Shown: piece by piece, positions 3,388-25,993 of the stretch | Layout of the letters: each line of letters opens with the position of its first letter | Position numbering within the stretch: position 1 is the stretch's first letter | Source: Candidatus Omnitrophota bacterium | GTDB lineage: Bacteria > Omnitrophota > Gorgyraeia > 2-01-FULL-45-10 | Direction of reading: 5' to 3' | Assembly (NCBI GenBank): GCA_041650935.1 | Contig: JBAZKH010000001.1 | Location: 139,945 to 203,944, forward strand | DNA: 64,000 bases | Notes under the pieces: generated by a model | The model's database searches: none | What the model was told of the DNA's origin: nothing | What the model saw: the letters and a program-made list of their open reading frames with translations, nothing else | Position numbers and translations under genes: made by a program

Positions 3388-4371
3388 ATGCTCAGGTACA
3401 TCGCAAAAAGACTGATCGGACTTGTGCCAGTATTCTTCGGGATTACACTGATATCGTTCTTCGTAATCCATCTTGCCCCGGGGAAGCCGACGGATGTCGA
3501 TACGAGCCTCAATCCGAAGGTATCGTATGAAGCGAGGATGCGGCTCGAAAAATTGTACGGATTCGACAAACCGATTCACGTACAGTATTTGAACTGGCTC
3601 AAGGCGTTTGTGTTCTTTGACTTCGGCTCCTCCTTCGTTGACGGCAGACCCGTAGCGGAGAAGATAGCGGAACGCATACCGGTAACGCTCCTTATAAATA
3701 TATCGTCGATGATATTGATGCTGAGTATCGGTATACCGCTGGGCATCCTCTCGGCCGTGAAACGCGGCTCGCTCCTCGACAGGACGACGACGATCGTTAC
3801 CTTCATCGGTTTTTCCGTACCCGAGTTCTGGCTGGCCCTTCTTTTAATGAGCTTTTTTGCGATAACGCTGGGCTGGCTGCCCATATCCGGGATAAAATCG
3901 CTCGACTTCGAATACTATTCGCTTGCCGGCAAGATACTGGATGTGGCAAGGCACCTCGTCCTGCCCGTCGCGATCGCCGCGTTCGGAAGCCTCGCAGGCA
4001 TTTCCAGATATACGAGGTCGGCCATGATTGGTGTTATCCACCAGGATTATATAAGGAGCGCCCGCGCAAAAGGCCTGAGTGAGCGCATCGTGATATACCG
4101 GCACGCCCTGAAGAATGCGATGCTGCCGGTTATAACGATCCTGGGCCTTTCGGTCCCGGGTCTCATCGGCGGCAGCGTCATATTCGAATCGATATTTGCC
4201 ATACCGGGGATGGGCAGGCTCTTCTACGAATCCGTAATGGCGCGGGATTATTCGACGATAATGGGCATCCTCTCGATAGGGGCGATATTGACGCTATTGG
4301 GCAATTTTCTCGCCGACATTGCATACTCTTATGCCGACCCGAGAATACGCGTTACGGGGAGCGGCGAATGA
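3388..4371 (+). CDS. ABC transporter permease (OppB/DppB-like)
   Basis: 327 aa polytopic membrane protein. The N-terminus [24 protein letters not shown] is the OppB/DppB family signature. Confidence 0.9.
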
Positions 4372-5198
4372 AGACATTTTTAAAGAATAAGGCGGCGTTT
4401 GCATCGTTACTCTTTATAGCGATGATAATACTCTTCGCGTTCTTCGCGCCGCTTGTCGCCCGGCACGACCCGTCCGCCATCGATACAAACTCGATCCTCG
4501 CCGCGCCGTCCGGCGCGCACATATTCGGGACGGATACTCTCGGCCGCGACATATTTGCCCGCATCGTATACGGCTCCAGGATCTCGCTCGCTATCGGGTT
4601 TATCGCCGTCGGAATCGCGGTACTTATAGGCACGGTCTTCGGTTCGATCGCCGGATATTACGGCGGAAAGGCCGACTCGATAATGATGCGGTTCGTCGAT
4701 ATCATGCTCTGCTTCCCGGCGTTCTTCCTGATCCTTGCCGTTATAGCGGTACTCGAACCGTCGATATTTAACATCATGGCCGTCATAGGATTGACGAGCT
4801 GGATGGGCGTTGCCCGGCTGGTGAGGGCTGAGGTGATGACGCTTAAAGAGCGCGACTTCGTCTGGGCCTCGAAAGTTATGGGCGCAAGCGACACATGGAT
4901 AATAGCGCGGCACCTCATTCCCAATGCCATCGGCCCGGTGTTTGTCAGCGCTACGCTCGGAATAGGCGGAGCGATCCTGACCGAATCCGCATTAAGTTTT
5001 CTTGGGATAGGTGTCCAGCCTCCGACGCCCAGCTGGGGCAATATACTTATGGACGGAAAATCGACACTTGGCGTGGCGTGGTGGCTCACTATATTCCCCG
5101 GGTTATTCATACTGTTTACGGTCTTGTCATATAACCTCCTGGGCGAGGGCTTAAGAGATGCTTTAGAGCCAAAATTGAAGGAGTTATCCACAAAGTAG
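4368..5198 (+). CDS. ABC transporter permease (OppC/DppC-like)
   Basis: 276 aa with an OppC-like N-terminus and BPD_transp_1 core. Overlaps the previous gene by 4 nt. Confidence 0.9.
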
Positions 5199-5220
5199 CT
5201 GACGTTTAAACGTCAGCTAC
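5181..5220 (+). repeat. ~40-bp element GAGTTATCCACAAAGTAG + GTTTAAAC-centred hairpin (copy 1); supplies the last codons and stop of the permease gene
   Basis: GAGTTATCCACAAAGTAGCTGACGTTTAAACGTCAGCTAC. Perfect palindrome AGCTGACGTTTAAACGTCAGCT. Near-identical copy at 10898..10937. Confidence 0.6.
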
Positions 5221-5231
5221 TATCAGACACC

Positions 5232-6017
5232 ATGAAAATATTGCAGATCGAAGATCTAATGGTATATTTTGGGCCGCAGAAACGTCCCTTAAGGGCTGTT
5301 GACGGCGTAAGCTTCGAAATAGAGCGGAATAAAGTCTTCGGGCTGGTCGGAGAATCCGGGTCGGGCAAGACACTTACGGCACTCTCCATCATTAAGTTAA
5401 TTCCCGAAGGCGCTTACTTTGCCGGAGGCAGGATCTTATTCAACGAAAAAGATCTCCTGGCCGCAGAAGATGAGTACCTTCGCAAGCTTAGGGGGTCGAA
5501 GATATCGATCGTTTTTCAGGATCCCGCCAGTTCCTTAAACCCGGTCTTCACCGTCGGATACCAGATAGCTGAGGCGATCCTCGCCCATCAGGATATCGGG
5601 ACCCCCTCGGCCGTAGAGCTTGCGCTTGAATTTTTGCGCAAGGTCCACATAGCCGATCCCAAAAGAGTGTTCCACGATTATCCGCACCAGCTCTCGGGCG
5701 GGACGAAACAGCGCATAAGTATAGCGATGGCGCTCGTCAACTCTCCGGAGCTTGTGATTCTCGACGAGCCGACGACGGCCCTCGATGTTACGATACAGGC
5801 GCAGATCCTGGATCTTCTTACCGAGATAAGAGAGAAAGAGAAATTGTCCATGCTTTTCATAAGCCACGATTTCGGAATAATTGCCAGGATGTGCGATGAA
5901 GTGGGCGTCATGTATAAAGGAAATATGGTCGAGCGCGGCCCGACCAAACAAGTTTTAACCAGCCCGAAAGAGCCATACACAATATCGCTGTTGGAATCGG
6001 TAAAGGCGTTTATATGA
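5232..6017 (+). CDS. ABC transporter ATP-binding protein (OppD/DppD-like)
   Basis: Walker A GESGSGKT, signature LSGGTKQR, Walker B ILDEPTTALD. Confidence 0.9.
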   Translation: MKILQIEDLMVYFGPQKRPLRAVDGVSFEIERNKVFGLVGESGSGKTLTALSIIKLIPEGAYFAGGRILFNEKDLLAAEDEYLRKLRGSKISIVFQDPASSLNPVFTVGYQIAEAILAHQDIGTPSAVELALEFLRKVHIADPKRVFHDYPHQLSGGTKQRISIAMALVNSPELVILDEPTTALDVTIQAQILDLLTEIREKEKLSMLFISHDFGIIARMCDEVGVMYKGNMVERGPTKQVLTSPKEPYTISLLESVKAFI

Positions 6018-6751
6018 TAATGGTAAAATGCGACAGCCTGACGAAGTCTTTCCCGGTATTCAAGGGTTACCTGAAGGAAAGGGCGGGTGAGGTGACGGCG
6101 GTTGATAACGTCTCCCTGCAGATAGAGCGGGGCGAGATGTTCGGTCTTGTCGGAGAATCGGGGAGCGGAAAGACGACGCTGGGTAAGATTATCCTCGGCA
6201 TCCTGAAGCCGGATTCAGGGAACGTGGAACTCGCGACCGGCAGGCTTAACGTAATATTCCAGGATCCGTACAATTCCCTCGATCCGAAGATGAGAGTTGG
6301 TGACATAATAGCGGAAGGGCTGGTCGTTAGGAGACCGGAGACCAAAGACCGGGTAGGGGAAGCGCTCGAACTCGTCAAACTGCCGCGGACGGCCGCGACT
6401 AAATATCCGCACCAGTTCTCCGGAGGGGAACGGCAGAGGATAGCGATAGCGAGGGCTGTTATTACAAAGCCCGAACTCATCGTCTGTGACGAGCCCGTCT
6501 CGAGCCTCGATGTCACGGTCCAGCTCCAGATATTGAATCTTTTGAAAGGTATACAGAAAGAATCCGGCATTACGTATCTCTTCATAAGCCATGACCTCAG
6601 GGTTATAAAATATATGTGCGGCAGGGTTGCTGTTATGAAGGCGGGCAGGATCGTCGAAGAGAATACGACAAGATCCTTATATTCGACGCCCGCGCATCCT
6701 TATACAAAACTTCTCCTATCGTCTATTCTGTCCTATGATTACTCAAGATAA
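6014..6751 (+). CDS. ABC transporter ATP-binding protein (OppF/DppF-like)
   Basis: Walker A GESGSGKTT, FSGGERQR, Walker B CDEPVSSLD. Confidence 0.9.
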   Translation: MIMVKCDSLTKSFPVFKGYLKERAGEVTAVDNVSLQIERGEMFGLVGESGSGKTTLGKIILGILKPDSGNVELATGRLNVIFQDPYNSLDPKMRVGDIIAEGLVVRRPETKDRVGEALELVKLPRTAATKYPHQFSGGERQRIAIARAVITKPELIVCDEPVSSLDVTVQLQILNLLKGIQKESGITYLFISHDLRVIKYMCGRVAVMKAGRIVEENTTRSLYSTPAHPYTKLLLSSILSYDYSR

Positions 6752-7421
6752 GATCAAGAAGATATTATCCGTTCTCGAATGTGCCTACGGCCGGCCGGAG
6801 CCGTTTAAGAGAGACAACCCCATCGATGTCCTTATACGCACGATCCTTTCGCAGAATACTACGGATAAGAATTCGCTCAAGGCATTTGCTGTGCTGAAAG
6901 CGGCCTTCAGGCCCTGGGATAAAGTGCTGGCCTCCGATGCAGGCAGGATAGCCGGGGTCATAAAACATGCGGGGCTCGCGAATATAAAAGCGCGGCGGAT
7001 CAAGAACGCGCTGGCCGAGATAAAAAAGCGCGAAGGGAAGCTTAGCCTGGTAAATCTACCCAGGTTAGATGCCGAAAGCGCCCTGGGTTACCTGACATCC
7101 TTGAAAGGGGTTGGACCGAAGACGGCGGCATGTGTACTTCTATTCAGTTTCGGCAGGCCTGTGATGCCGGTAGATACGCACATTTTCAGGGTAGCGCGGC
7201 GGTTGGGCCTGATAGATAAGAAAGTCGGTATAGAGGATGCTCATAAGATCCTGACAAAAATTATACCAAAGCACTTGATATGCCGTTTTCATTTATGTAT
7301 AATAGAACACGGTCGCAGGACCTGTAAGGCGCAAACCCCAAAGTGCGGGGTTTGTGTCGTTTATAGGCTGTGCAAGTTCGCAAGGAAGGAATACTGCAAA
7401 AGTTTAGCAGAGCAGGTTTAA
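6735..7421 (+). CDS. nth: endonuclease III-like DNA glycosylase (HhH-GPD, 4Fe-4S)
   Basis: HhH-GPD core (LKGVGPKTAACVL) and C-terminal Cys cluster CKAQTPKCGVCVVYRLC. Overlaps the ATPase gene by 17 nt. Confidence 0.75.
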   Translation: MITQDKIKKILSVLECAYGRPEPFKRDNPIDVLIRTILSQNTTDKNSLKAFAVLKAAFRPWDKVLASDAGRIAGVIKHAGLANIKARRIKNALAEIKKREGKLSLVNLPRLDAESALGYLTSLKGVGPKTAACVLLFSFGRPVMPVDTHIFRVARRLGLIDKKVGIEDAHKILTKIIPKHLICRFHLCIIEHGRRTCKAQTPKCGVCVVYRLCKFARKEYCKSLAEQV

Positions 7422-7433
7422 ACCTGCTCTGCT
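7406..7433 (+). terminator. Perfect palindrome AGCAGAGCAGGTTTAAACCTGCTCTGCT
   Basis: GTTTAAAC-centred hairpin. The nth stop codon TAA lies in its loop. Confidence 0.5.
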
Positions 7434-7451
7434 ATAAGTCGAGGCATCTAG

Positions 7452-9831: not shown

Positions 9832-10893
9832 ATGGCTGTGAAAAATTATAAGATCGCGGTGATCCCGGGTGACGGTACCGGCCCGGAAGTAGTTGCCGAG
9901 GGGTTGAAGGTCATGAAGGCCGCCGCTAAAAAATTCGGCTTTAGTTACAAAACGGATATGTTCGATTATGGCGGCGCGAGATATCTTAAGACGGGCGAGA
10001 CCATTACCGATAAAGAGCTGGCCGCGCTAAAAGAATACGATGCCATCTTTTTGGGAGCGATAGGGCATCCGGACGTAAAACCCGGTATCCTGGAGCAGGG
10101 GATACTCCTGAAGACACGGTTCGGTCTCGACCAGTACATAAATTTGAGACCTGTAAAATTATACAATTCCGCGTTCTGCCCGTTAAAGGATACGACGCCG
10201 GAGGATATAGATTTTGTCGTCGTGCGCGAAAATTCCGAGGGCCTGTACAAGGGCATGGGCGAATTCCGGGATAAGGGCAAGCCGGATGAGGTTGCGATAC
10301 AGATTTCATATAATACGAGGAAAGGCGTCGAGCGGTGCATCCGTTACGCGTTCGAGTTCGCGAGAAAACGTAATAAAAAAAAGAAACTGACGCTCTGCGG
10401 CAAGACAAATGTCCTCACCTTTGCGTGGGACCTTTGGCAGAGGACATTCGACATCGTGAAGAAGGACTACCCGGATATCCAGACCGACTACGCCCATGTC
10501 GACGCGACCACGATGTGGTTCGTAAAGAACCCGGAATGGTTCGACGTAATCGTTACCGATAATTTGTTCGGCGATATCATAACCGACCTTGGCGCCATGA
10601 TACAGGGCGGCATGGGCATCGCCGCGGGCGGTAATATCAACCCGGCAGGCGTATCGATGTTCGAGCCGATCGGCGGTTCCGCGCCGAAATATACGGGTAA
10701 ACATGTCATAAATCCGCTCGCCGCGGTCTGCGCGGGCGGGATGCTGCTCGATAATATAGGCGAAGAAAAAGCGGCGCGGGCTATCGAAAGAGCCGTTATA
10801 AAGATAGCAAGCACCAGGATGAAGAGTCTCGCGGCGGGCAAGATGGGGTACTCGACCGAAGAGGTAGGGGATCTGGTGGTTGAAAATCTGTAG
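9832..10893 (+). CDS. leuB: 3-isopropylmalate dehydrogenase
   Basis: KIAVIPGDGTGPEVV N-terminus, NLFGDIITDL and GGSAPK motifs. Confidence 0.9.
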   Translation: MAVKNYKIAVIPGDGTGPEVVAEGLKVMKAAAKKFGFSYKTDMFDYGGARYLKTGETITDKELAALKEYDAIFLGAIGHPDVKPGILEQGILLKTRFGLDQYINLRPVKLYNSAFCPLKDTTPEDIDFVVVRENSEGLYKGMGEFRDKGKPDEVAIQISYNTRKGVERCIRYAFEFARKRNKKKKLTLCGKTNVLTFAWDLWQRTFDIVKKDYPDIQTDYAHVDATTMWFVKNPEWFDVIVTDNLFGDIITDLGAMIQGGMGIAAGGNINPAGVSMFEPIGGSAPKYTGKHVINPLAAVCAGGMLLDNIGEEKAARAIERAVIKIASTRMKSLAAGKMGYSTEEVGDLVVENL

Positions 10894-10897
10894 AGAC

Positions 10898-10937
10898 GAG
10901 TTATCCACAATGTAGGGGACGTTTAAACGTCCCCTAC
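10898..10937 (+). repeat. ~40-bp element GAGTTATCCACAATGTAG + GGGGACGTTTAAACGTCCCC hairpin (copy 2)
   Basis: Shares the 5' flank, the GACGTTTAAACGTC core and the 3' CTAC with the copy at 5181..5220. Confidence 0.6.
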
Positions 10938-10958: not shown

Positions 10959-11954
10959 ATGAAGAAATACAACGTAGCCATAATGGGCGCGACAGGCGCC
11001 GTCGGGAATTGTTTCTTACGGATTCTCGAGGAGCGTAAGTTCCCCATTAAAAATATACGGCTTCTTGCTTCCGAGCGTTCGGCGGGCAAGAAATTAAAGT
11101 TTATGGGCAAGGACCATCCCGTGGAGGTCCTGACCCACGACTCCTTTAAGGGGGTCGATATCGTCCTGGCAAGCGCCGGCGCGTCGCGGAGCCTCGAATT
11201 TTTGCCGAGTGCGGTAAAAGCCGGGGCTGTATGCGTCGATAACTCGAGCGCTTTCCGGATGGATAAAGGGGTGCCGCTTGTCGTCCCCGAGGTAAACCCG
11301 CAGGATATCAAAAAGCACAAAGGTATTATCGCCAACCCCAACTGCTCGACGATACAGATGGTCGTGGCGCTCTATCCGGTGCATAAGCGCGCTAAGATAA
11401 AGAGGATAGTGGTGACGACCTTCCAGTCCGTCTCCGGCGCCGGGCAGAAGAAGATAGTCGAACTCCAGGAACAGGCGGCGGCATTCCTCGCGCGGAGGCC
11501 CTTTAAGGCGGTTGAACTGCCGTACCAGATAGCGTTCAATCTCATCCCGCAGATAGACGTATTTATGGATAATGGATATACGAAAGAAGAGATTAAGATG
11601 GTCAACGAGACACGTAAGATCATGGGCGACGATTCGATCAACGTGAATGCTACGTGTGTGCGGGTGCCCGTATTCTACGCCCATTCGGAGAGCGTCAATA
11701 TCGAGACTGCCAAATATATAAGCGCCAATGAGGTGCGCGAGCTCCTTCTGAAGGCGCCTGGCGTGAAGCTCGTCGACGATCCGCAGACCAGGCGGTATCC
11801 GATGCCTATCGACGCGGAAGGCCGTGACGCGACGCTCGTCGGCAGGATCAGGCAGGACGAGTCCGTGAAGAACGGGATATCGATGTGGGTCGTTGCCGAC
11901 AATATCCGCAAAGGCGCCGCGTTAAACGCCATCCAGATTGCTGAGCTACTGTAA
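10959..11954 (+). CDS. asd: aspartate-semialdehyde dehydrogenase
   Basis: VAIMGATGAVG Rossmann N-terminus, active-site NCSTIQMV. Confidence 0.95.
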   Translation: MKKYNVAIMGATGAVGNCFLRILEERKFPIKNIRLLASERSAGKKLKFMGKDHPVEVLTHDSFKGVDIVLASAGASRSLEFLPSAVKAGAVCVDNSSAFRMDKGVPLVVPEVNPQDIKKHKGIIANPNCSTIQMVVALYPVHKRAKIKRIVVTTFQSVSGAGQKKIVELQEQAAAFLARRPFKAVELPYQIAFNLIPQIDVFMDNGYTKEEIKMVNETRKIMGDDSINVNATCVRVPVFYAHSESVNIETAKYISANEVRELLLKAPGVKLVDDPQTRRYPMPIDAEGRDATLVGRIRQDESVKNGISMWVVADNIRKGAALNAIQIAELL

Positions 11955-13670: not shown

Positions 13671-16600
13671 ATGAAGAATAAGATATTAATAAAATCTTTG
13701 AGTATAGTCGTTTTATGCGCATTTCTATTTAACGATCTCGCCTATGGCCTGAGTCCTATAGTCGTGTCGGGCCCCGATGGTGGAGGCTCCGGCACCAGAG
13801 ATGACATGTACGCCCTCGGCAAGAAGTTATTTGCCGCGAAGTGGCTCGGTCCCGGCTCAATCGGTGCGATGGACATGTCCCGTGTTGGTATCCCGAAATT
13901 TCGCGGAACCGCCCCGAAGATAAAGAACGTCTCAAATTTCCGCAGGGTGACTTACCGGGAAGACATGGAATTTCCCGCCGGCTGGTCAAATAACAAAGTG
14001 AATAGGGAGTTGCTAAAGTCTCGGGACCTCATCTCTGCCCTCAGATGTTTCAGGAAGAATGAAGCCGCAATATCGGGTGAATTCCTATCTATCGAAGAAG
14101 GGTATTTTGAACCGGAGCGGAAGGGTGAACTGCCGATAGCCAGGACGGAAATACTTGATAACGGCATGCTTAAGCTCATCGTACATACGGAATTTGTCCA
14201 GATGTGGGACGATCTGCTGGCCCGCGATATATGGTTCGATCACACCTTCCCGGACGGTAAGACCAGGACCGTGAGCGCTGCGTGGGCGCTATTTTACCGC
14301 CTGGCCAAGCACGAGATGGCGGATAGGGTTAAGGTAGGAGCGTATCATAAAGGCGGAGGGCACATATCAAGCTTTTCTTTCGGGAGCATTCCCGAAATAT
14401 TCAGCAATGAGTTTTCGGCAAACGAGATCGGCGGGCGATATAATATCATAAACGACGCTATATGGCTCTGGTATCTGGGCTCTTATTCCTATACCAACAA
14501 GACGAGATACAATAATAGAACCGCGAAGGCGAGGTACAACTGGATATTTAACGGTAAGAAGGCTAAGGAGCTTGAGCTCGACCAGGAATTTCCCAATCTT
14601 CGCGGCGGCGAAAACAAGGCAAATAGGGAATTTGCCATCAAGCTGGCCCTGAATATAAATAAGACGTGTTTTGAAAAAGGTAGAATAGTGTGGGAGACCG
14701 TAGTCGATCAAAAATTCATCGATGCCTACGAACGGCGACGACAGAGGATTTATTCTGTCCTACCCGCTACCGGCCGCGACGATGATCGAAAGCCGCGCGC
14801 GCATGACCGTTGGGCCAGGGGTGAGGCCGGGCCGGCTAAGAAAGATCTTGCCGCGGCCAGCGTCGACGATATCACGGCGCTTCTAAGGAAGTATGGCCTT
14901 AAGCCGGCTACTATATCCGAACGCGAATGGATAGCTAGTGTCGCGTCGATGCTGTGTGTGGAAGCAGGCTTTTCGAAGATTGCCCCGCTGGTGAATAAAC
15001 TGTGCTTAGTGCAGGACCTCGGGCGTTATATCGAGGATACAGAACCGGAACTTTACGGGCGGGTAAAGGCAGCTTTTAAAAAGCATGGGCTGGAGACTAC
15101 CGCGGATGCGCTTATAGATGCCGCGAAAGAAGCCGGTTTTACCGATATGATGGATTTCGCAAGAAATGTTATAGGCGGCGAGATAGAGTGGAATCCAAAG
15201 ACCGAAGAAGCCGCCCGCGGATTGGCCGATCATGAAAATAGGACCTTGGAATTACTGGAAGATGAGGGTTATTCTATAGGGCAGTTCGAAGTAAACCTCA
15301 TACCTGCGCACCATGATTTTTCCAAGCTATCTACCGAAACTACGCCGGTAAAGCGGGCTATTACGGCGGCTATCCGGCTGGCGCTTATACTCAATTATTC
15401 TAACAGGAATAAAGGCGATTCGATGGAAGCGGTAGAGAGTTTTATGGTTAGCAGGATTAACACGGAAGGTATGGCCGGGTATGGTATAGATGCGATGCAG
15501 AACTACCGCAGGCTGCTTGCAGCGGAAGGCGGCCAGCTTTTAGCGAGAATAAGAGAAGCGCGGGCGGCATATTCCGCCGATTCTGTCATAAGAGAAGGTG
15601 ATGCGGAATTTTTGGCATCTCTGCAGGGACGATTAATGTCCGGCGAACCACCTGTTGCCGGTGCAGGGTCGGACGGATCTGTTATTGAAGGCAAACTCAC
15701 TATAGGTGACCTTAATAGAGCGGTCATAAGAGAGATAAATAGTGATTCCGGCATAACAGTATCGGATGCAGAAGGATATATAGAATTATGGGGAAACTTT
15801 ATTGCGGAGCACGCCGCGGAGAACACGACTGTTAATATCTCGGATATCGAGAACATTCTTGCCAGTAAGGGCGAAGAGACTATTGGCTGGCGCGAAAGTA
15901 TAAGAGCATTAATAACTCCTTTATCTGTTGGGATAGGTATTGTATGGGGCTATACAGGCTTTTGGTATATAGCGGCAATGCATTATGTCGCAGGGGCAGT
16001 ATTTTTTGGCGATTTTATATATAACAATTTCATAAAAGGGAAGGATGAAAAAGAGGGTTTTGCGGCTCTGGCAGGATACCTCAGGAAGGCCAAGTTGGGC
16101 GTGCCGGGCCAGGCAGTGACTTTCTTCGCGATAGGAACCCCATCCGTTACGCCGAAAGCAACCCTGGCGAATCTGACCATAGATGCCCTTACCGGAGAAA
16201 TTACAAAAGCGCTGAAACATGACTTTAGCCTGACAATTTGGGATAGATTTAGATATGGGGAGTTGTGGGGCAAAGTCATTGAAAAGTATGGAGAAAATGC
16301 GGCCATTAGTATTTCAAATATAGAGAAGGGCCTTATTAATAAGAGAAGCCGGCTCATCGGATGGTGCGGTGCAGGAATAGCTGCAGGCTGTGTATTTGGC
16401 GCTGCAGGCGTCCTTTGCGGTATCGCCGTTCCTTGGGCAACGGCATTATTTGATTTAATTACAGTATATTATTCGATAGAGGGTATCTTTGGGCTTGTCG
16501 GCACTAGACAGCAAGACTTAGCTGCGCTGGCAGGCTACCTTAAAAAAATTGAGTATGAGTTGAGGAGCCAAGAGGCAGGAGAGGCAGTGGAAACGCCTGC

Positions 16601-19600
16601 TCAACCACAGCGTGATGACAAACACAGCCCTGGCGAGCCGCCGACGGCGGGATCGATCGACGGAGTAAAGCCGTCCGACCTTGCCATACATCCGATGCTG
16701 AATGCGCTTATTAATAAATATTTGCAAGGCGGGAATGGAAATGCTTGCGTATCAGAAGATATAAAGACCCCGTTTTTTGACAAACTTTACTTGCTGGGAG
16801 ACGCTAATGATTTTACGTTCCGGGATATTTTCGACAAGCTTGTCAACCGGGAAATGCGAGAGCAGCATATGAACCGGCCGGATGCGGAAGCCGCATTGGT
16901 CATACAGCTTGTAAACCACTACAGAAGCTATGCCCATATTAACAGGCATATGGTCGAAGCGTTCAAGAACCAGCTTGCCCAGCAGGTCGAGCATTTCGGC
17001 GTCTACCATAACGGCGCCATATACGTTATGCGCGGGCTTATAGGAAGTAAAGATGAGATAATACAGCATGCGGTCCTGGAGTGCCGTATCCATAGAGAAT
17101 GCGCTGAAAGCCTGGATTATAACGGTCAAGGCGCGGAATCGGCCTACCGGTCGTGGAGAGATCCAATAGACAGCCGGGAGATGGACGTAAATGTCGCTAT
17201 TCCCGAACACGGCATTAATATAAGAGGGCGAATGACGTATAAGCGGTTTGTCGACCTGGCTTATGACGCCGCGGAGAAAGCGTATCCTCTATCGAGCCTG
17301 ATCCCAAAAAATAAACGGCATAAGCTGGGCGACCTGAGCTATGCCCTGCCCGGTGAACCACCTGTTGCCGGTGTAGGGTCGGACGGCGCCGGCGCTGAAA
17401 GTAAACTTACCATAGACGACCTTACTAGGGCGGTTATACGCAGTATAAATGATGACCCCAGCCTGACGGAATCAGTTATAGAGGGATATGTAGACTTGTG
17501 GAACGATTTTATTCAAGAGCGTCCTGAGGATAATGCGACCGTTAATATCTCGGATATCAAGAAGGCTCTTGCCGAGAAGAACGAACAGCTTACTCCTTTG
17601 GCCGGGGTTGTTATAGAAGCGACTACGGCCGCTATATTTTTTGCCGTAGGTGTCATATGGAGCATCACGGGCCCTTGGTATGTGGCGGCAATATATTATG
17701 CCATAAGTACAGGATTTCTTGCCGATTCCATAAATAATTATCTTTCTCATCATAAACAAAAAGACTTCATGGCGCTGGCAGGCTACCTTAAAAAAATTGA
17801 GTATGAGTTGAGGAGCCAAGAGGCAGGAGAGGCAGTGGAAACGCCTGCTCGGATGCCCGAAGAAACCGACCGGCGGATAAAGCGCGGTAAGTCCCCGGAT
17901 TGGGCGCTCACTGTAATTGCGCTCTCCGGCCTGGAAGAAATTACGATAAAAGATTATTTGGATCAATTTGACTGGGCGATAGAAGAGTATCCGGAGTTTG
18001 ACCTTGACGTCCGCGCCGAAAAGAAGCCGGAATCTACCGCAAGGAGAGACCTTTACCTAAACCCCCGTTCGTTGGAAATAATGGGTATCATCGAACCCGC
18101 AAGCCGTCTTCCGGGCTCGAGGGAATATAGGTGGCGATTGACGGAAAAAGGAAGACGCCTGGCAGAGCTTACCGTCCGGATGAGGAAAAAGATCGAGGAA
18201 GCCTGGCAGATAGTCCCGTCCGGCATACGATGTGATGGAACTACGAGCGAAGAGCTGATTATTGTGGAGGACGATAAAAAAGTTTTAGAGAGCGAACTTA
18301 AAAGCCTGCTTAGATTAAATGGCCGTGACCTTGCGCAAAAATTAGCGGCGGCAAGGTTGGAAGATAGATGTGAAATCGATGACATTCTCAGAGATTTAAG
18401 TGGTAATGCCCGCGTCTCGGAAAAACTGCGTACTTGTATAGAAGATGCGAAGGCCGCGGCGGCGGAGTTTAACAAAGTAACGTCGATGCTGGAACCGCGG
18501 AAAGCCGGCGTGAAGCGCCGTGAGCCGCCTACGATGCAGGAAAAACTTGAGCCGGAGGAGTTTTTTGCGCAAAATAGGACTAAAAATGCAGAGCCCATTA
18601 AGCCGATGAGCAGCCTGCCATATAGTCACGATGACAACATAAGGTTTATGTCCCAAACAGGAAAAGAACGACAGCTTGCGCCCCAAAACTCTGCCGAACC
18701 TGCGCGTATAAGCGTGGGCGGGTCGGAGAAAACCGAAGCCATATCCGTTCCATCATTGGCCGATATCCGCAATATTAGCAGTGCTTTTGCTGCAAGATTA
18801 CCAAGTAATTTTCCGGATTCTTTTAGAACAAGACGCGATCTTCGATTGTGGATGCTCAACGATATCCAATCTTTAAGAGCGCAGTTTTTAGAAAATATGG
18901 CAAGAGCAGGGGGCTATAAAAAGACAGATGTGATGTATCCGCAATATTCAGGCTGGGCTATTGAATGTGATAATAAACGATCTGAAGCTGAAAGGGTATA
19001 TGGAATACTATTCGGCGAAGGGGAAGCGAAACCGGCCCGGCCGCGCGACAACGCCCGCTTTGATTACAAATCTCCCGGCAGTCCGGCGCATTACCTGCTT
19101 TATATAGGGTTATATCCACCCATTCCCACGGGATGGAAGCCTCGGACATTAACCAGCGCCCACTTTTCGCAGATGGGGAAGATCAGTGACAGGACATTGC
19201 GGCGGGACAGAAAGTTTTTAGAAGATATTGGGTATCTGGACATAGAAAAGCCTACCTGGCTTACGGAGAAGGGTTACGCGGAAGCATGTGATTTTGCAGG
19301 CAGGCTGAAAACATTAGCCGCGCAGGTTAAGCCCGGTTACTCTGGGGATAGCCGTCTACTTGTACAGGATTTGATAAAAGAAGCAAATCCCCAAATACTT
19401 TCCGAAATCAAGAAGATGAACGACAAACTTCGGGCGGAAGCAAAATCAGTCCGGTTGAGCAAAGCTGACCAACGGAAAAGACTCGCTGCCATACTATCCG
19501 CAGCGAAGATAAAAGATCTGACCGCCCGCGTCACAGCATTAATATACTTACGGGACAATCTGCCCCGGGAGACTAAAAGAGAAGACGAAAAACTGAAGCG

Positions 19601-22600
19601 GTCCATTGTCGAAATAGCCGGTCAGAATGATAACCTGGCCGCCCGCGTCACAGCGTTGGCATACTTAAGAGATGTTCTGCCGTCAAGGACCGAGATCGAG
19701 TCCGAAAAGCTGTGGCAGTCCATCTGTGCAATAGCGACTCAGAAAAAAGATCTCACAGCCCGCGTCATGGCGTTGATATATATGAGGGATGAGTATGATC
19801 CCGACATTGACGCTGATAAACGCCAGGAAAAGCTCTGGAACTCTATCGGTAAAATAGCACGCCAGAAAAAAGACCTCACAGCCCGCGTCACAGCGCTTAT
19901 GTTTTTAAAAAGTCCAGACAGATGGGTACAACATGAATTCTCGCGGCTAGCACCGGATGGTGAACTTTTATATTTTTATCGTGATAGTGATAGGCGAAGA
20001 GCTAGCCCTATCCGTGAGATAGCTAACCAGGATAAAGACCTCACAGCCCGCGTTGCGGCGTTGATATGTCTGAGGAATGGAGGAGATTATAACTGTGAAG
20101 AACTCTGGCAGTCTATCCGTAGAATAGCCCACCAAAAGAGAGACCCTGTAGCCCGTGTCACAGCGTTGATATATATGAGAGATAATACACCGGAAATTGC
20201 CGGGGATGAACGCGAGCGCTTATTGCAAAGAATTCAAGGTAAAGAACCGGCCTCTGTATCCGTGCCTCGATTCGATTGGGTGGATACGTTAAGTCGCGCC
20301 GAAAGGAAGGAGATAGTAGACAATCTTGCACTTACAGATGAGCAAATAGCCGATAGAACCATCTTAAGGGCGGCTATTGCAGCGGTGACTGCGAATACAG
20401 AACAAGATAAAAAACAGGCAATGATTGTGCTCGCATGCCGTTTCCAGGAATTAGATGGCGATGGCTCGTACGCCGCCGCAGAACGCGCAGAACAGTCAAT
20501 AAAAGATATTCGCCGCGAAATAGATAACAAGGGAGAGATCGACCGGCGCACGGAATCCGGCAAGGGACAGGCAGCGGAAACACCTGCCCGGCCGCGCGAT
20601 GGAAATGACCGTTCTTGGAATGGCCATATAACGGAAGGCGATATAAGGATGCACGCGGATGTGGGTAATTCGGAAGATATTAACTGGCTTGTTGATGCCA
20701 GCGCTAACCAGCCCGATATGGTGGAGAAAATACTCACTGAGCCTAAATACGCCGCTGTACGCAAGCAGTATAAAGTGGCGCTAGCGAAATTACCATCAAT
20801 GCAATGGGGGATAAAAGATTTTACTAGTATGGCGCAATTCCTAGGAAAACATGCGGCTTCTTTTAAGAAACAGGTTGGTGGGTTCCATTTTTACATAGGA
20901 GTACCGGAACACTCGGATCAGCGTTCACTTAAAACATCTTTCATTTCTTATAACGCCAATTTTGGGAAAGGAATGAGCTATACTTTCCGAAAAGAACCGT
21001 CCGGAGAGATTTCGTTGATAGTCAATCGTGCTATATGTGATGGCATGGGGGAATCACATATTTTTACAATAAATGAAAACATGATACGAGAGGAATACGG
21101 ATCCAGGGCAGAGGTTATAGAAAATGGCTTGATAAAGGGATTTGTGTCCAAAGATGGGTGTTTGTATGTTCTTGTTAGTCATGCTGGGAAGGAATTTGCA
21201 AAAAATTATATACCTGAATTTGACCCTGAATATAAGTTTGTGTCTTTTGTCGAATCAATGCCCGGTACAGTAGTGACGACGCCGGTACTGGAGACGGATG
21301 TAGCGAAAACTGCGCAAGCTGCGACAGGTGTGTCAGCGGATGCGCAAGAAGTAACGCAACCAGAAGCAGAAGATCTCGAGAACCTCCATTATTATTGGCT
21401 TGCATTGGGAGCCGCCCAGCGAGAAGCAATAATTGAAAATATCGCTGAAGTTACTCTCAGAAGAGTGTCCTATGCCGATACTGATTTGTTGTACAGTGTA
21501 GCGGCAAGGGTAGGAGCCAAGATGCCGAACGAAATTAATCAGGCTATGGCAATGATTGTCAGATGTTTTAAATCGAGAGGAAAAGATGACACGGCCGCTC
21601 AAAAAACAGCGGAAGAGCTGGTGGAACTTGTCAACACGGCCTTAAATGCCATTAAGACACTCCCCGAACAAAGAATAAGGTTTCAATCTGCATTAGATGG
21701 AGCACGTAATAGGCTAACTGCAGAACAAATGGGTGTGAGATTCCCTGTTGCGCAACCCGCGGTAAATGAAAAACCCCAGGCCGCGGCAATATCAGATACT
21801 GCGACAGAATTGGTCGAGTTGATGGCAAAGAGAGATGCTTTGCCGGAGAGCGCCGACCTGCTTGTGGTCTTTGGCAGTCCGGATGCCGAAATGGTCGCGG
21901 CGGAAGCGGCTAAAATGTATCGTGAGCGTAAGATATCGCGTATATTGGTTTCCGGGAAATACGGAAAACATTGCACCCCGTGTGCGGATAACGGTGACTT
22001 TGGACGTGATAAGGATGGTAACATCGTCAGGGCGGAGGCATTAATAATGAGAGATGCTATTATTGCCGCCGGAGTGCCGGAGTCATCGATCCTGGTTGAA
22101 AAAGAATCCCAGGGGATGACCGATAACGGAGTATTTTCCGTGAATAAATTAATAGAGGCGAATATTGTGCCCAAAACGGTCATTTTTATGCATGCGCCCC
22201 TTATGCAGTTAAGAGGCTCGTTGGCTCTTCGCAATGCCTTGGCGCAAAATAAGATAGAAGCCGCGGTATACGATTATGCGGCGTCTATTCCCGTAAACCC
22301 TTCCGAAAAATTAAGCGCTATTATTTGGCAGGCAGGCCGGCTGGATATTGAAATCGAGCCGATCGTCGGCAAAGAGAGATATGCTCAAATAATACTTCTG
22401 CTGGAGAGCCTGAGGATGCCTGAAAAGAGCGCGGGGGAGCAGTCCGCGACTGGAATGAATATGCCGGTTGCAAACGAAGTCAATGTGGCCGAAGCGAAAC
22501 CGGCCCAGCCTGCGGTGCGCGCGGGCGGCAGGGCAAATAATTTAATCGAAATATCCGAATTAAATCAACATATCGTAGAATTGGAAGCGATGGCTTCCAG

Positions 22601-23828
22601 AGGGAAGTATGTTGCAGATGAACTTGCGGTTGCTCATGAACGGCTTTTAGCGCTTGCGAAAGCTGCAGCGGTCAATGCGCAAGAAGTAACACAACCCGCC
22701 GCGCAGGAAGCCGAAAACGCATCGGTTGCGCAGCCCACTTTAGAAGAGCTCACGGTGGAGATGTCCAGTGGAGCCACTGCGGTTGACTGGATGCCGGTGT
22801 GGGAAAACGTACTGCAAATGGTTTTAAGCAAAAAAGTGTACGGTTCTGCCGTAACAATAAGAGAATATATGGAGTGTAATGATGTTGATCGCGAAACGAC
22901 TGTTACTGCACTTTCTGAACTTGTTAGGCAAGGTTATTTAGTGCGATCTAATATTATAAGGTGGAGTTACGATCTTACGCCAAAAGCTGCCGTTGAAATA
23001 TTATGTGCACAAGCAATAGCTGAACAAGGGCTGGATACGGACGAATTCTGGAGCGCCCGCGCCGCGGCTATAAAAGATACGAAGAATAGAGCCATCATTA
23101 AGGCGATATCGGATTTCACCGCTCGGCAAGGTCCGAATGCGGGCCCGGGCGCTATGATCCCGCTTTCGAAGACGACGACGCTCAGCATCTGGCAGATAGT
23201 AAACCTGGCCCATCAAAACAGGATAGAGATCTTCCGGCCCCAGGAGGACGGCCGTTCCGCCGGCATGAAGAAGGCCCTTGATACTATCGAAAAGCGGAGA
23301 GGGGATATCATAAGCGATAGATTCTACACCGGGAATAATCTCGAGGCGATGCTTAGGGACCCGGCCAAAAAGGGCACATTAAGGATAGTACTCACCACAA
23401 ACGCGGAATCGAAGAGACTTGTGGAAGCCCTGTCCAGGAAAGATGTTACGCTATTTAAGTCTACGCGGCTATTGAATCTGACGCTTCCCAGGGAGTACAG
23501 CGCATATCTTCCGAACTCTAAGGAGAGGACGTACTACCAGGCGAAGATGATATTCGAAGCCATACTGGCGCGGTTATATGAAAAGGGCAAGACGCCTATG
23601 GTCGAGCTTATCATGAGGAGCGTCTTCGAAGGCCGCATAGATGGCGGTATGGATAAATTCCTGGAGACATTGGCCGAGGCCGAAGACGAAAAGGATAATC
23701 CCGACCCGGAGAAGATAAAGATAAGGATCGAAAACTGTCTTAACATAATCGTGAGGCTTTCCGAGGAAGTGGCCAGGTCGATCGAGCATTTGAAGTTGAT
23801 CATGAAGGAGTTCTGGACAGCGGCGTAA
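13671..23828 (+). CDS. giant secreted/membrane multidomain protein (3385 aa) of unknown function
   Basis: Single uninterrupted ORF with SD AGGAGG 8 nt upstream. N-terminal signal peptide. Two paralogous modules with hydrophobic helices, ~7 HEAT-like repeats, a DUF218/YdcF-like domain, winged-helix-like segments. No recognisable enzymatic core over most of its length. Confidence 0.85.
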   Translation: MKNKILIKSLSIVVLCAFLFNDLAYGLSPIVVSGPDGGGSGTRDDMYALGKKLFAAKWLGPGSIGAMDMSRVGIPKFRGTAPKIKNVSNFRRVTYREDMEFPAGWSNNKVNRELLKSRDLISALRCFRKNEAAISGEFLSIEEGYFEPERKGELPIARTEILDNGMLKLIVHTEFVQMWDDLLARDIWFDHTFPDGKTRTVSAAWALFYRLAKHEMADRVKVGAYHKGGGHISSFSFGSIPEIFSNEFSANEIGGRYNIINDAIWLWYLGSYSYTNKTRYNNRTAKARYNWIFNGKKAKELELDQEFPNLRGGENKANREFAIKLALNINKTCFEKGRIVWETVVDQKFIDAYERRRQRIYSVLPATGRDDDRKPRAHDRWARGEAGPAKKDLAAASVDDITALLRKYGLKPATISEREWIASVASMLCVEAGFSKIAPLVNKLCLVQDLGRYIEDTEPELYGRVKAAFKKHGLETTADALIDAAKEAGFTDMMDFARNVIGGEIEWNPKTEEAARGLADHENRTLELLEDEGYSIGQFEVNLIPAHHDFSKLSTETTPVKRAITAAIRLALILNYSNRNKGDSMEAVESFMVSRINTEGMAGYGIDAMQNYRRLLAAEGGQLLARIREARAAYSADSVIREGDAEFLASLQGRLMSGEPPVAGAGSDGSVIEGKLTIGDLNRAVIREINSDSGITVSDAEGYIELWGNFIAEHAAENTTVNISDIENILASKGEETIGWRESIRALITPLSVGIGIVWGYTGFWYIAAMHYVAGAVFFGDFIYNNFIKGKDEKEGFAALAGYLRKAKLGVPGQAVTFFAIGTPSVTPKATLANLTIDALTGEITKALKHDFSLTIWDRFRYGELWGKVIEKYGENAAISISNIEKGLINKRSRLIGWCGAGIAAGCVFGAAGVLCGIAVPWATALFDLITVYYSIEGIFGLVGTRQQDLAALAGYLKKIEYELRSQEAGEAVETPAQPQRDDKHSPGEPPTAGSIDGVKPSDLAIHPMLNALINKYLQGGNGNACVSEDIKTPFFDKLYLLGDANDFTFRDIFDKLVNREMREQHMNRPDAEAALVIQLVNHYRSYAHINRHMVEAFKNQLAQQVEHFGVYHNGAIYVMRGLIGSKDEIIQHAVLECRIHRECAESLDYNGQGAESAYRSWRDPIDSREMDVNVAIPEHGINIRGRMTYKRFVDLAYDAAEKAYPLSSLIPKNKRHKLGDLSYALPGEPPVAGVGSDGAGAESKLTIDDLTRAVIRSINDDPSLTESVIEGYVDLWNDFIQERPEDNATVNISDIKKALAEKNEQLTPLAGVVIEATTAAIFFAVGVIWSITGPWYVAAIYYAISTGFLADSINNYLSHHKQKDFMALAGYLKKIEYELRSQEAGEAVETPARMPEETDRRIKRGKSPDWALTVIALSGLEEITIKDYLDQFDWAIEEYPEFDLDVRAEKKPESTARRDLYLNPRSLEIMGIIEPASRLPGSREYRWRLTEKGRRLAELTVRMRKKIEEAWQIVPSGIRCDGTTSEELIIVEDDKKVLESELKSLLRLNGRDLAQKLAAARLEDRCEIDDILRDLSGNARVSEKLRTCIEDAKAAAAEFNKVTSMLEPRKAGVKRREPPTMQEKLEPEEFFAQNRTKNAEPIKPMSSLPYSHDDNIRFMSQTGKERQLAPQNSAEPARISVGGSEKTEAISVPSLADIRNISSAFAARLPSNFPDSFRTRRDLRLWMLNDIQSLRAQFLENMARAGGYKKTDVMYPQYSGWAIECDNKRSEAERVYGILFGEGEAKPARPRDNARFDYKSPGSPAHYLLYIGLYPPIPTGWKPRTLTSAHFSQMGKISDRTLRRDRKFLEDIGYLDIEKPTWLTEKGYAEACDFAGRLKTLAAQVKPGYSGDSRLLVQDLIKEANPQILSEIKKMNDKLRAEAKSVRLSKADQRKRLAAILSAAKIKDLTARVTALIYLRDNLPRETKREDEKLKRSIVEIAGQNDNLAARVTALAYLRDVLPSRTEIESEKLWQSICAIATQKKDLTARVMALIYMRDEYDPDIDADKRQEKLWNSIGKIARQKKDLTARVTALMFLKSPDRWVQHEFSRLAPDGELLYFYRDSDRRRASPIREIANQDKDLTARVAALICLRNGGDYNCEELWQSIRRIAHQKRDPVARVTALIYMRDNTPEIAGDERERLLQRIQGKEPASVSVPRFDWVDTLSRAERKEIVDNLALTDEQIADRTILRAAIAAVTANTEQDKKQAMIVLACRFQELDGDGSYAAAERAEQSIKDIRREIDNKGEIDRRTESGKGQAAETPARPRDGNDRSWNGHITEGDIRMHADVGNSEDINWLVDASANQPDMVEKILTEPKYAAVRKQYKVALAKLPSMQWGIKDFTSMAQFLGKHAASFKKQVGGFHFYIGVPEHSDQRSLKTSFISYNANFGKGMSYTFRKEPSGEISLIVNRAICDGMGESHIFTINENMIREEYGSRAEVIENGLIKGFVSKDGCLYVLVSHAGKEFAKNYIPEFDPEYKFVSFVESMPGTVVTTPVLETDVAKTAQAATGVSADAQEVTQPEAEDLENLHYYWLALGAAQREAIIENIAEVTLRRVSYADTDLLYSVAARVGAKMPNEINQAMAMIVRCFKSRGKDDTAAQKTAEELVELVNTALNAIKTLPEQRIRFQSALDGARNRLTAEQMGVRFPVAQPAVNEKPQAAAISDTATELVELMAKRDALPESADLLVVFGSPDAEMVAAEAAKMYRERKISRILVSGKYGKHCTPCADNGDFGRDKDGNIVRAEALIMRDAIIAAGVPESSILVEKESQGMTDNGVFSVNKLIEANIVPKTVIFMHAPLMQLRGSLALRNALAQNKIEAAVYDYAASIPVNPSEKLSAIIWQAGRLDIEIEPIVGKERYAQIILLLESLRMPEKSAGEQSATGMNMPVANEVNVAEAKPAQPAVRAGGRANNLIEISELNQHIVELEAMASRGKYVADELAVAHERLLALAKAAAVNAQEVTQPAAQEAENASVAQPTLEELTVEMSSGATAVDWMPVWENVLQMVLSKKVYGSAVTIREYMECNDVDRETTVTALSELVRQGYLVRSNIIRWSYDLTPKAAVEILCAQAIAEQGLDTDEFWSARAAAIKDTKNRAIIKAISDFTARQGPNAGPGAMIPLSKTTTLSIWQIVNLAHQNRIEIFRPQEDGRSAGMKKALDTIEKRRGDIISDRFYTGNNLEAMLRDPAKKGTLRIVLTTNAESKRLVEALSRKDVTLFKSTRLLNLTLPREYSAYLPNSKERTYYQAKMIFEAILARLYEKGKTPMVELIMRSVFEGRIDGGMDKFLETLAEAEDEKDNPDPEKIKIRIENCLNIIVRLSEEVARSIEHLKLIMKEFWTAA
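19480..20200 (+). other. array of ~7 degenerate 36-45-aa alpha-helical repeats, HEAT-like/PBS-lyase-like, inside the giant ORF
   Basis: Recurrent ...EKLWQSI..IA.QKKDLTARVTAL[IM]YLRD... in the translation. Confidence 0.55.
21860..22330 (+). other. DUF218 (YdcF/SanA/ElyC-like) domain embedded in the giant ORF
   Basis: LLVVFGSPDAEM...AAKMYRERKISRILVSGKYG...AEALIMRDAIIAAGVPESSILVEKESQGMTDNGVFS...KTVIFMHAPLMQLRG follows the DUF218 spacing (VLG...SGG...EA..M..GVP...E..S.nT.eN...H..R). Confidence 0.55.
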
Positions 23829-24880: not shown

Positions 24881-24886
24881 TAATAT
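24858..24886 (+). promoter_or_regulatory. second TTGACA-N17-TAATAT promoter, overlapping the terminator 3' arm, for the arg operon
   Basis: TTGACA at 24858-24863 and TAATAT at 24881-24886. SD GGAGG at 24904 and ATG at 24912 lie downstream. Confidence 0.55.
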
Positions 24887-24911
24887 GAAAAGATATTCCG
24901 ACGGAGGACAA

Positions 24912-25925
24912 ATGATAAAAGCAGGAGTTGTCGGCGCGACCGGCTACGCCGGTGAAGAGGTAATAAAGATCCTCGTGAACCATAAAGGCGTGAAGATAAC
25001 CGAACTTTCAGCGGTTATCGATAAGGAAGAACAGTTCTCTTCCATATTTCCGGCCTTTAAGGGTAAACTGGATCTCATATGCAAAAAACCCAATCCGGAA
25101 GCGATGGCCGGGAATGTCGATCTCGTATTCTTGGGATTGCCGCACAAAGTTTCGATGGAGCTGGTGCCGGTATTCATGAAGGCGGGGAAGACCATCATCG
25201 ACTTAAGCGCAGATTACAGGCTCTCACCGGAAGTATATAAGGTATGGTACGGCATCGAACATAAAGATAAAGAGAATTTGCCTAAGGCCGTGTATGGTCT
25301 GCCCGAATTATATTATGATGCGATAAAGAAAGCAAAATTGATCGCGAATCCGGGATGTTATCCTACGAGCGTAATCTTAGGTATCGCGCCCATATTAAAA
25401 GAGAAGGCGATTAAGACCGATTACATGATAGCCGATTCGAAGTCCGGCGCGACGGGCGCAGGGCGCAAGCCTGATCTGGCGCTCTCATTCTGCGAAGTGA
25501 ACGAGAACCTTAAGGCCTATAAGGCAAACGAGCATCAGCATAAACCTGAGATAGGGAAGATACTTTCCGAGGTGGCGGGTAAAGAGATAGACGTAATATT
25601 TACGCCGCACCTTATTCCGATGAACAGGGGAATACTCTCGACGATCTACCTTAAGCTGAACAAGGCGCTTGATACGAAATCGGTATTGGGGGTATACAAA
25701 AAGTTTTACCAGGACAAGCCTTTTGTGCGGATATCGGACGAAGGGCGGCTGCCTCAAATCAGAGATATAGTCGGGACGAATTACTGCGATATCGGGTTGA
25801 AAGTGACGGGCGACACCCTGATCATCGTCTCGTGCATCGATAATTTGAAGAAGGGCGCGGCGGGCCAGGCGGTACAGAATATGAATATTATAGCAGGATT
25901 TGATGAAACCGAGGGATTAATTTAG
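24912..25925 (+). CDS. argC: N-acetyl-gamma-glutamyl-phosphate reductase
   Basis: MIKAGVVGATGYAGEE, active-site region GCYPTS. Start chosen at the ATG preceded by GGAGG. Confidence 0.9.
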   Translation: MIKAGVVGATGYAGEEVIKILVNHKGVKITELSAVIDKEEQFSSIFPAFKGKLDLICKKPNPEAMAGNVDLVFLGLPHKVSMELVPVFMKAGKTIIDLSADYRLSPEVYKVWYGIEHKDKENLPKAVYGLPELYYDAIKKAKLIANPGCYPTSVILGIAPILKEKAIKTDYMIADSKSGATGAGRKPDLALSFCEVNENLKAYKANEHQHKPEIGKILSEVAGKEIDVIFTPHLIPMNRGILSTIYLKLNKALDTKSVLGVYKKFYQDKPFVRISDEGRLPQIRDIVGTNYCDIGLKVTGDTLIIVSCIDNLKKGAAGQAVQNMNIIAGFDETEGLI

Positions 25926-25993
25926 GTGATAACTAAATTCTTGCCGGGTGAAATTTTCACCCGGCAAGAATTTCACCCGGCAAGGAGTGTGGT

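Follow-up and report, generated by a model that had tools for sequence, protein, structure and literature searches.

The stretch of Candidatus Omnitrophota DNA analysed here, a contig segment of 64,000 nucleotides that we call the window, carries three perfect hairpins at gene junctions. They are very probably GTAG-type "double-foot" repetitive extragenic palindromic (REP) elements, members of a REP/REP-associated tyrosine transposase (RAYT) system that is widespread in this phylum. In its double-foot GTAG form, such a system is a known kind of element; what had not been described before is the host, as Omnitrophota are not among the phyla for which REPs have been reported. A literature search with partial journal coverage found no published description of this family in Omnitrophota. 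The original prediction, made from the letters of the window alone, had offered "a terminator or mobile palindromic unit". The second of these is the one that stands because copies are found in related genomes, their stems covary, a RAYT gene is flanked by inverted copies, and the orthologous sites of relatives are empty.

The three palindromes with a GTTTAAAC centre were found where they had been placed. Copy 1 at 5195-5220 is GTAGCTGACGTTTAAACGTCAGCTAC, or GTAG-CTGACGT-TTAA-ACGTCAG-CTAC, a 26-bp perfect palindrome of the double-foot type; its range had been given correctly, but the accompanying string was only 22 nt long and omitted the outer GT/AC. Copy 3 at 10912-10937 is GTAGGGGACGTTTAAACGTCCCCTAC, or GTAG-GGGACGT-TTAA-ACGTCCC-CTAC, also a 26-bp perfect palindrome. 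Both are preceded by an arm, which lies on the + strand in either case and consists of GAGTTATCCACAA and a linker nucleotide: A in copy 1 (5181-5194, with TTATCCACA at 5184-5192) and T in copy 3 (10898-10911, with TTATCCACA at 10901-10909). The longer element that the first and third palindromes had been said to share is a 40-nt unit, GAGTTATCCACAA-N-GTAG-7nt-TTAA-7nt'-CTAC, present at 5181-5220 and 10898-10937. Besides the linker, these two copies differ in two stem pairs (CT/AG versus GG/CC), and both changes are compensated, as had been noticed. Copy 2, TA-GCAG-AGCAGGT-TTAA-ACCTGCT-CTGC-TA, is a diverged unit of the GGCAGGT type with a GCAG (GYAG) foot at 7407 and no arm; its core AGCAGAGCAGGTTTAAACCTGCTCTGCT occupies 7406-7433, and pairing extends to 7405-7434, or 30 bp. 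The original prediction had overlooked GTAG/CTAC as the foot by which REP elements are known.

The 8-mer GTTTAAAC occurs three times in the window, each time as a palindrome centre, compared to an expectation of 0.82. Three or more occurrences were obtained in 6 of 100 shuffles, and the excess of the 8-mer by itself is marginal. However, the inverted repeats at all three sites have perfect half-lengths of 13-15 nt, and the two copies of the 18-nt flank (0.07 expected) were matched in none of 100 shuffles. The folding energies, which the original prediction had proposed to compute, are about -20 to -25 kcal/mol (-22.4 for copy 1 and -25.5 for copy 2), with z-scores of -5.9, -4.8 and -3.1 for copies 1, 2 and 3, and no shuffled sequence was equally stable. 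A covariance model derived from copies elsewhere matches only these three sites in the 64 kb, scoring 64.2 bits for copy 1, 26.8 bits for copy 2 and 65.6 bits for copy 3; the three E-values are 1e-15, 2.4e-15 and 2.8e-5, the last one belonging to copy 2. A search of the window against Rfam at gathering thresholds returned one tRNA only and no match at the hairpins.

The search for further copies uncovered many of them in related Omnitrophota genomes and metagenome contigs. In a scan of one genome per species (185,579 species), the exact 18-mer GAGTTATCCACAANGTAG was matched 44 times. Thirteen of the matches fall in 12 Omnitrophota contigs plus one contig labelled Planctomycetales, and all 13 continue into GTAG-7-TTAA-7'-CTAC, compared to none of the others. 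These others were rejected as family members, being unrelated coding sequence or origin-like clusters of DnaA boxes. Matches in Desulfuromonadaceae/Geopsychrobacter (L008, L010, L027 and L029) contain the 18-mer GAGTTATCCACAATGTAG once per genome, in apparently coding DNA with mutually conserved flanks and without a hairpin, and are coincidental. Those of the Oscillospiraceae type (L017, L033 and L041) have coding-like flanks conserved among themselves, lack the hairpin as well and are unrelated, and L011 and L045 are DnaA-box clusters, probably origins. When metagenomes were scanned with TTATCCACAANGTAG-N7-TTAA-N7-CTAC, at least 119 contigs were found. The same pattern had no match in viral contigs, and hence there is no sign of a phage origin.

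The consensus unit is a 26-bp perfect palindrome, GTAG-N7-TTAA-N7'-CTAC, accompanied usually on one side and sometimes on both by an arm of 11-13 nt, (A/G)GTTATCCACA(A/G), with a linker of 2-3 nt. Pairing of the two 7-nt stretches, which the searches did not demand, is complete (7/7) in 116 of 138 distinct copies and is realized by 29 different stems. In an alignment of 148 copies, 94.1% of the cells pair, compared to 73.7% in shuffled alignments and 33-47% in controls with a displaced partner column. Double-sided stem changes number 323 in this alignment versus 107 expected, with 6-51 of them at each of the seven free pairs, and none of 500 shuffles of the 148 sequences reached the observed covariation score. 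Several stem types are found together on one contig.

A scan free of this ascertainment, in which any TTAA-centred 11-bp hairpin was accepted, gave 176 hairpins in 1.07 Mb of fetched loci. The GTAG...CTAC feet were present in 168 of them, although they had not been asked for. An exact arm stands on one side in 106 of the 176 and on both sides in 14, the latter being perfect palindromes of 54-60 nt; the rest are armless or have an arm with another linker (e.g. TTATCCACAGC-GTAG) or of variant sequence (e.g. TGTTAATAAC). TTATCCACA is the dominant arm sequence among the ascertainment-free copies (27 of 35). The highest local density is six copies in 13 kb, in L064. In L112 (7248-7341), two identical REP units with their flank (CTCAATTGTGACAAGTTATCCACAATGTAGAGCACCCTTAAGGGTGCTCTACTATTG) are repeated in tandem with a period of 57 nt and followed by a degenerate third arm, which is a cluster similar to the bacterial interspersed mosaic elements (BIMEs). 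"Chimeric" hairpins were also encountered in L060, L090, L117, L144 and L152, where the halves belong to two stem types (e.g. GTACCAC / ACCCCTC) and do not pair. They look as if two units had exchanged halves, or undergone a deletion, at the TTAA centre, a process that has been suggested as the origin of double-foot REPs (Quentin 2018, PMC6006769).

The open reading frames (ORFs) that are bracketed by the element on both sides encode homologous proteins of 160-167 amino acids. They score 118-131 bits against the NCBIfam model of REP-associated tyrosine transposases, NF047646 (cut-off 80), whereas the IS200 model NF033573 gives 22-36 bits, below its cut-off of 55; they also match Pfam Y1_Tnp (PF01797). 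The HuH histidines (H-x-H) and the WQ, Y-x-HNNP and SSY motifs are invariant in 14 members with identities down to 48%. By tblastn, RAYT genes were located in 14 loci that had been selected by the DNA pattern alone. In at least 10 loci (L035, L054, L067, L076, L091, L117, L133, L150, L153 and L158) the order is that of a REPtron: hairpin, arm, 2-25 nt, ATG of the RAYT gene, its stop codon, 0-20 nt, arm and hairpin, with the arms pointing inward (REPs and REPtrons are defined in Nunvar 2010, PMC2817692, and Di Nocera 2013, PMC3733652). The family has 92 database members, and the organism names attached to them are Omnitrophota except for one partial sequence from a metagenome-assembled genome labelled Chloroflexi. 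One homologue carries the Joint Genome Institute label "REP element-mobilizing transposase RayT".

Stem types of the GT-TTAA-AC kind are found beside enzymes similar to those of L158, L076, L067, L054 and L091, and those of the CC-TTAA-GG kind beside enzymes similar to those of L150, L153 and L035. This grouping of stems by enzyme clade fits the reported co-evolution of RAYTs and REPs. The two arm-bearing copies of the window have the stems GGGACGT and CTGACGT, which is the pair that flanks the RAYT gene of L158.

A recurrent junction, ...TTGTGGATAAC-TTT-ATG-A... (e.g. in L061, L063, L093, L098, L140 and L160), places the next start codon 4-5 nt past the arm. No Shine-Dalgarno sequence is recognisable at these junctions, and the RAYT gene itself is arranged in the same way. 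We considered the arm near start codons (...TTGTGGATAACTTTATG) as a promoter or a non-canonical ribosome-binding site, but this was dropped as the primary explanation because only three nucleotides, GGA, pair with the standard anti-Shine-Dalgarno sequence, because the opposite orientation occurs (as in the window), and because the REPtron layout explains the proximity of the arm to the RAYT start.

The window copies occupy three junctions between co-directional genes of the + strand, for which the annotation is supported by Pfam. Copy 1 lies between an Opp/Dpp-type ABC permease (4368-5198; BPD_transp_1/OppC_N) and an ABC ATPase (5232-6017). As the original prediction had read it, the permease ends in ELSTK* inside the element: GAG TTA TCC ACA AAG TAG closes the ORF, the arm encodes the ELSTK ending, and the stop codon is the foot TAG (5196-5198). 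The second hairpin was likewise said to hold the stop codon of nth, and the TAA in its TTAA loop (7419-7421) does terminate an HhH-GPD (Nth-like) gene (6735-7421), whose last seven codons, KSLAEQV*, come from copy 2. Copy 3, described earlier as lying just past leuB, begins 4 nt after the stop codon of the Iso_dh (LeuB-like) gene (9832-10893), within the 65-nt spacer that separates it from the aspartate-semialdehyde dehydrogenase (Asd) gene (10959-11954).

The corresponding junctions of relatives do not contain the element. Site 1 is empty in L165/L166 (89% amino acid identity of the permease) and L168 (83%), where the stop and start codons overlap in ATGA; in the window, the junction is longer by about 40 bases, and the C-terminus ...KLKEPQR* is replaced by ...KLKE-LSTK*. 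Permease orthologues mostly end in ...LEPRLKE*, without LSTK. At site 2, the flanks are identical to those of L169, and the window differs by a clean insertion of 38 nt; the Nth-like gene of L169 reads on and overlaps the acetyltransferase gene. The insert may be flanked by a 4-nt direct repeat, AAGT, but this is ambiguous, and sites 1 and 3 show no consistent target duplication. At site 3, L172 has leuB TAA-T-ATG asd, that is a 1-nt spacer compared to 65 nt in the window, and the covariance model has no match in the 12-kb syntenic region of L172. As all three copies are missing from the overlapping or abutting junctions of relatives, the sequence comparison identifies them as recent, lineage-specific insertions at gene junctions.

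The history of site 1 may be more complicated. The permeases P0054 and P0062 also end in LSTK. In L167 (1843-1889), where the permease is about 84% identical and ends in EPK-LSTK*, an element of the same stem type is found at the same junction, 9 nt further upstream. L167 is more distant than the empty-site relatives (89%) and yet carries the element. Comparison with the window (5176-5232) suggests two insertions at this junction or, alternatively, loss or transfer of the element.

Across the family, the context of 102 single-arm copies was called from ORFs, a crude procedure, which placed 45 of them between co-directional, 13 between convergent and 4 between divergent genes. In the co-directional class, the order gene end, hairpin, arm, gene start is seen 33 times and the reverse 12 times; the window copies have the minority orientation. 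The element supplies the stop codon at 30 gene ends, with the foot TAG in 19 cases and the loop TAA in 11. In L168 (3429-3454), a REP copy, GCAGGGCAGGT-TTAA-ACCTGCCCTAC followed by a degenerate arm GTGTGGATAT, lies in frame within an ABC-transporter ATPase gene, and is translated into ...GRAGLNLPYCSGVD...; the loop concerned is short in the window orthologue and variable in others. REPs inside genes were also reported by Di Nocera 2013 (PMC3733652).

The resemblance to the GTAG REPs and REPtrons of other bacteria (REP/BIME with RayT/YafM in E. coli, the REPs of Pseudomonas and SMAG of Stenotrophomonas) is extensive. Shared features are short G+C-rich palindromes with a GTAG foot, many dispersed copies, most of them flanked by co-directional or convergent genes, sub-families whose stems differ by compensatory changes, a RAYT bracketed by two inverted copies, often of two sub-types, and copies within or overlapping gene ends. 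The Omnitrophota elements differ from the classical ones in their constant self-complementary TTAA loop and the absence of a bulge. They come closest to the "double foot" REPs, whose 5' end is GT[AG]G and whose 3' end is C[TC]AC (Quentin 2018, PMC6006769). The enzymes of these REPs, TnpA-REP subclass 2.4 in the same work, have WQ and YIxNNP-type motifs, as do those described here (WQ and Y[IM]HNNP). By motif comparison only, the HuH signature is NH[IFV]H in subclass 2.4 and xHLH in Omnitrophota, where SSY is present as in subclasses 2.2/2.6. No arm has been described for published double-foot REPs, whereas the Omnitrophota elements possess one. Their two-armed form, arm-hairpin-arm of 54-60 nt, resembles REPINs (REP doublets forming hairpins; Bertels & Rainey) in that inverted doublets make one long hairpin, the presumed mobile unit. 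However, a REPIN consists of two separate REP hairpins and a spacer, and most copies here are single hairpins with one arm, full palindromes making up only about 15-20%.

Several observations weigh against the assignment to REP/RAYT systems. In classical REPs the foot is unpaired and present on one side, whereas here it is mirrored by CTAC and paired, and the conserved 11-13-nt arm found on most copies is outside any REP definition. As the search patterns prescribed the arm, GTAG, TTAA and CTAC, part of their constancy in the large alignment is built in, and of the 57 hairpins that fall outside the search pattern, only 31 possess an arm that departs from TTATCCACA at no more than one position, with a 2-3-nt spacing. 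The density observed in the window is only three copies per 64 kb. Finally, a tblastn search of the window yielded no RAYT gene, and the 92 RAYT homologues include no record from the 710,442-bp source contig. The cognate RAYT of the window copies could reside on another contig or could have been lost.

The other half of the original alternative, that these are intrinsic terminators or operon-internal hairpins for RNA stabilisation or processing that evolved in place under selection on RNA structure, is very unlikely. A G+C-rich stem-loop just past a gene is a feature shared with terminators, the predicted RNA folds at the gene 3' ends are strong (z from -3.1 to -5.9), single-arm copies between co-directional genes show the orientation bias of 33 versus 12, and in L005, L071, L099 and L103 a T-run and TTGACA come next after the hairpin. 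However, the tails of the window hairpins, TATCAGAC, TATAAGTC and TGCAGAAT, contain no T-run and a terminator scan calls none of them, so they do not qualify as canonical terminators. The unit is found in either orientation with respect to transcription. The element, its TTAA loop included, is a perfect palindrome as DNA and reads alike on both strands; the symmetry extends to both arms in 32 strand-wise matches (about 16 loci). Mismatches in the stems are not biased towards G-T (11 G-T/T-G versus 22 A-C/C-A) and carry no signal of selection on one RNA strand. Furthermore, the elements are missing from the orthologous junctions of close relatives, as sequences acquired by insertion would be, and they bracket a transposase gene. 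Effects on RNA may still be a secondary consequence of REPs.

That these are miniature inverted-repeat transposable elements (MITEs), solo ends of a DDE insertion sequence with terminal inverted repeats, or IS200/IS605 ends is more improbable still. The full forms are perfect inverted repeats of 54-60 bp, and the AAGT at site 2 might be a target duplication; however, no consistent duplication is present at the other two sites, and palindrome halves split by a transposase-sized insert were looked for among the Omnitrophota matches without finding any. IS200/IS605 elements do share the Y1 HuH fold, the recognition of a single-stranded hairpin and a guide tetranucleotide 5' of it. The Omnitrophota protein nevertheless fails the IS200 cut-off and passes that for RAYTs, it is the short element that has multiplied and not the gene, and the bracketed genes of different loci are 48-91% identical, not near-identical as copies of an active insertion sequence would be. 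We give the least credence to operators for a dimeric transcription factor or for a nucleoid or segregation protein in the manner of parS, matS or NBS. Perfect dyad symmetry, an intergenic position by start codons and conserved outer half-sites are what such sites would have, but an operator spacer needs no self-complementarity, and here all 29 stems pair. Neither are the sites conserved at orthologous positions, and the neighbouring genes are functionally unrelated.

A separate question, compatible with the REP identity, is raised by the arm. It contains TTATCCACA, a 9/9 match to the high-affinity DnaA box TT[AT]TNCACA (the consensus quoted in PMC6006769, which may not be that of Omnitrophota); this perfect 9-mer in the conserved 5' flank had been overlooked in the original prediction. 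If it were a genuine DnaA box, the elements could titrate DnaA, regulate their neighbours or couple REP processing to replication, a reading of the sequence that we regard as unlikely. In its favour, perfect 9-mers in Omnitrophota loci lie beside a well-paired hairpin in 170 cases and not in 24, a ratio that is biased because the loci were selected by the arm; 14 of the 24 are beside imperfect hairpins, and those left without any hairpin number about as many as chance would produce. In the window, which was not selected by the arm, two of the three perfect DnaA boxes are in REPs. The arm also remains constant while the stems vary and the identity of the RAYT proteins falls to 48%. Fusions of RAYT relatives to a DnaA-C-like domain have been reported, together with a proposal that the replication fork is targeted (Quentin 2018, PMC6006769).

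On the other hand, the arm could equally be a recognition or cleavage region of the RAYT, as it contains CA dinucleotides (PMC8266576), about 45% of the ascertainment-free hairpins are armless, the 160-residue RAYTs have no DnaA-like domain, and the identity of a 9-mer can be a coincidence. The TIRYT/subclass 2.1 Y1 enzymes, which have a Bac_DnaA_C-like C-terminal domain, likewise hint at a link between RAYT-type enzymes and DnaA boxes, except that there the DnaA-like domain belongs to the protein and boxes are missing from the repeats, whereas in Omnitrophota the box is in the repeats and the protein lacks the domain. That the arm functions as a DnaA box, with Omnitrophota REPs recruiting DnaA or using a DnaA-box-like code, appears quite improbable. 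If it did, the arm would be a cis-acting equivalent of the DnaA-C-like domain carried by some RAYT relatives (Quentin 2018), RAYT processing would be tied to replication, many high-affinity DnaA sites would be strewn over the chromosome, and the REP family would double as a DnaA-titration or regulatory network kept across a phylum. The DnaA-box-like arm offers a concrete handle on how REP/RAYT systems might meet the replication machinery.

By analogy with the RAYTs of E. coli, Stenotrophomonas and Marinomonas (Corneloup 2021, PMC8266576), the element would form a hairpin as single-stranded DNA, for which the replication fork is the most likely place. The HuH/Tyr enzyme would recognise the hairpin together with the GTAG foot, which serves as a guide, cut at a nearby CT or CA dinucleotide and rejoin the strands, so that copies spread. 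Some RAYTs cleave CA dinucleotides (Corneloup 2021), and we speculate that those of the arm, directly 5' of the foot, may hold the cleavage region.

In the window, the outcome is that three operon junctions have been spread apart by 33-65 nt, and two proteins have gained REP-encoded C-termini and stop codons (foot TAG and loop TAA). REP insertion into compact genomes thus enters overlapping or abutting junctions and breaks translational coupling. Strong hairpins in polycistronic mRNAs may in addition affect mRNA stability or translation secondarily. Such REPs could protect mRNA from 3' exonucleases, or stall ribosomes when located within about 15 nt of the stop codon. The sequence-and-structure model can be used to annotate this REP family in the compact genomes of Omnitrophota, a large and uncultured phylum.

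Further Pfam-supported genes in the neighbourhood of the three copies encode ABC ATPases, a GNAT acetyltransferase and LeuC/LeuD-like proteins. The GC skew is positive in all 4-kb bins of the window (1-64000), and almost all long ORFs are on the + strand. Hence, the window probably lies within one replichore, and its genes are probably co-oriented with replication.

Palindromes of other types are present as well. At 25935-25973, between co-directional ORFs at 24885-25925 and 25994-27232, AAATTCTTGCCGGGTGAAA-T-TTTCACCCGGCAAGAATTT has 19-nt arms, a 1-nt loop and a predicted energy of -33.8 kcal/mol, and it is without the GTAG foot. It is preceded by GGTGATAACT, which bears a loose likeness to the REP arm. 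Past it (to 25986), a second 3'-arm core, CACCCGGCAAGGAG, covers the likely Shine-Dalgarno sequence of the downstream gene, so that alternative pairing is possible. A near-perfect palindrome at 50969-50996, TGAATGGTATAGGGCCCTAAACCATTCA, is located about 125 nt downstream of a tRNA gene (50773-50845) and is not of the GTAG/TTAA type. Elsewhere in the window, a giant ORF of 3,385 codons occupies 13671-23828 on the + strand.

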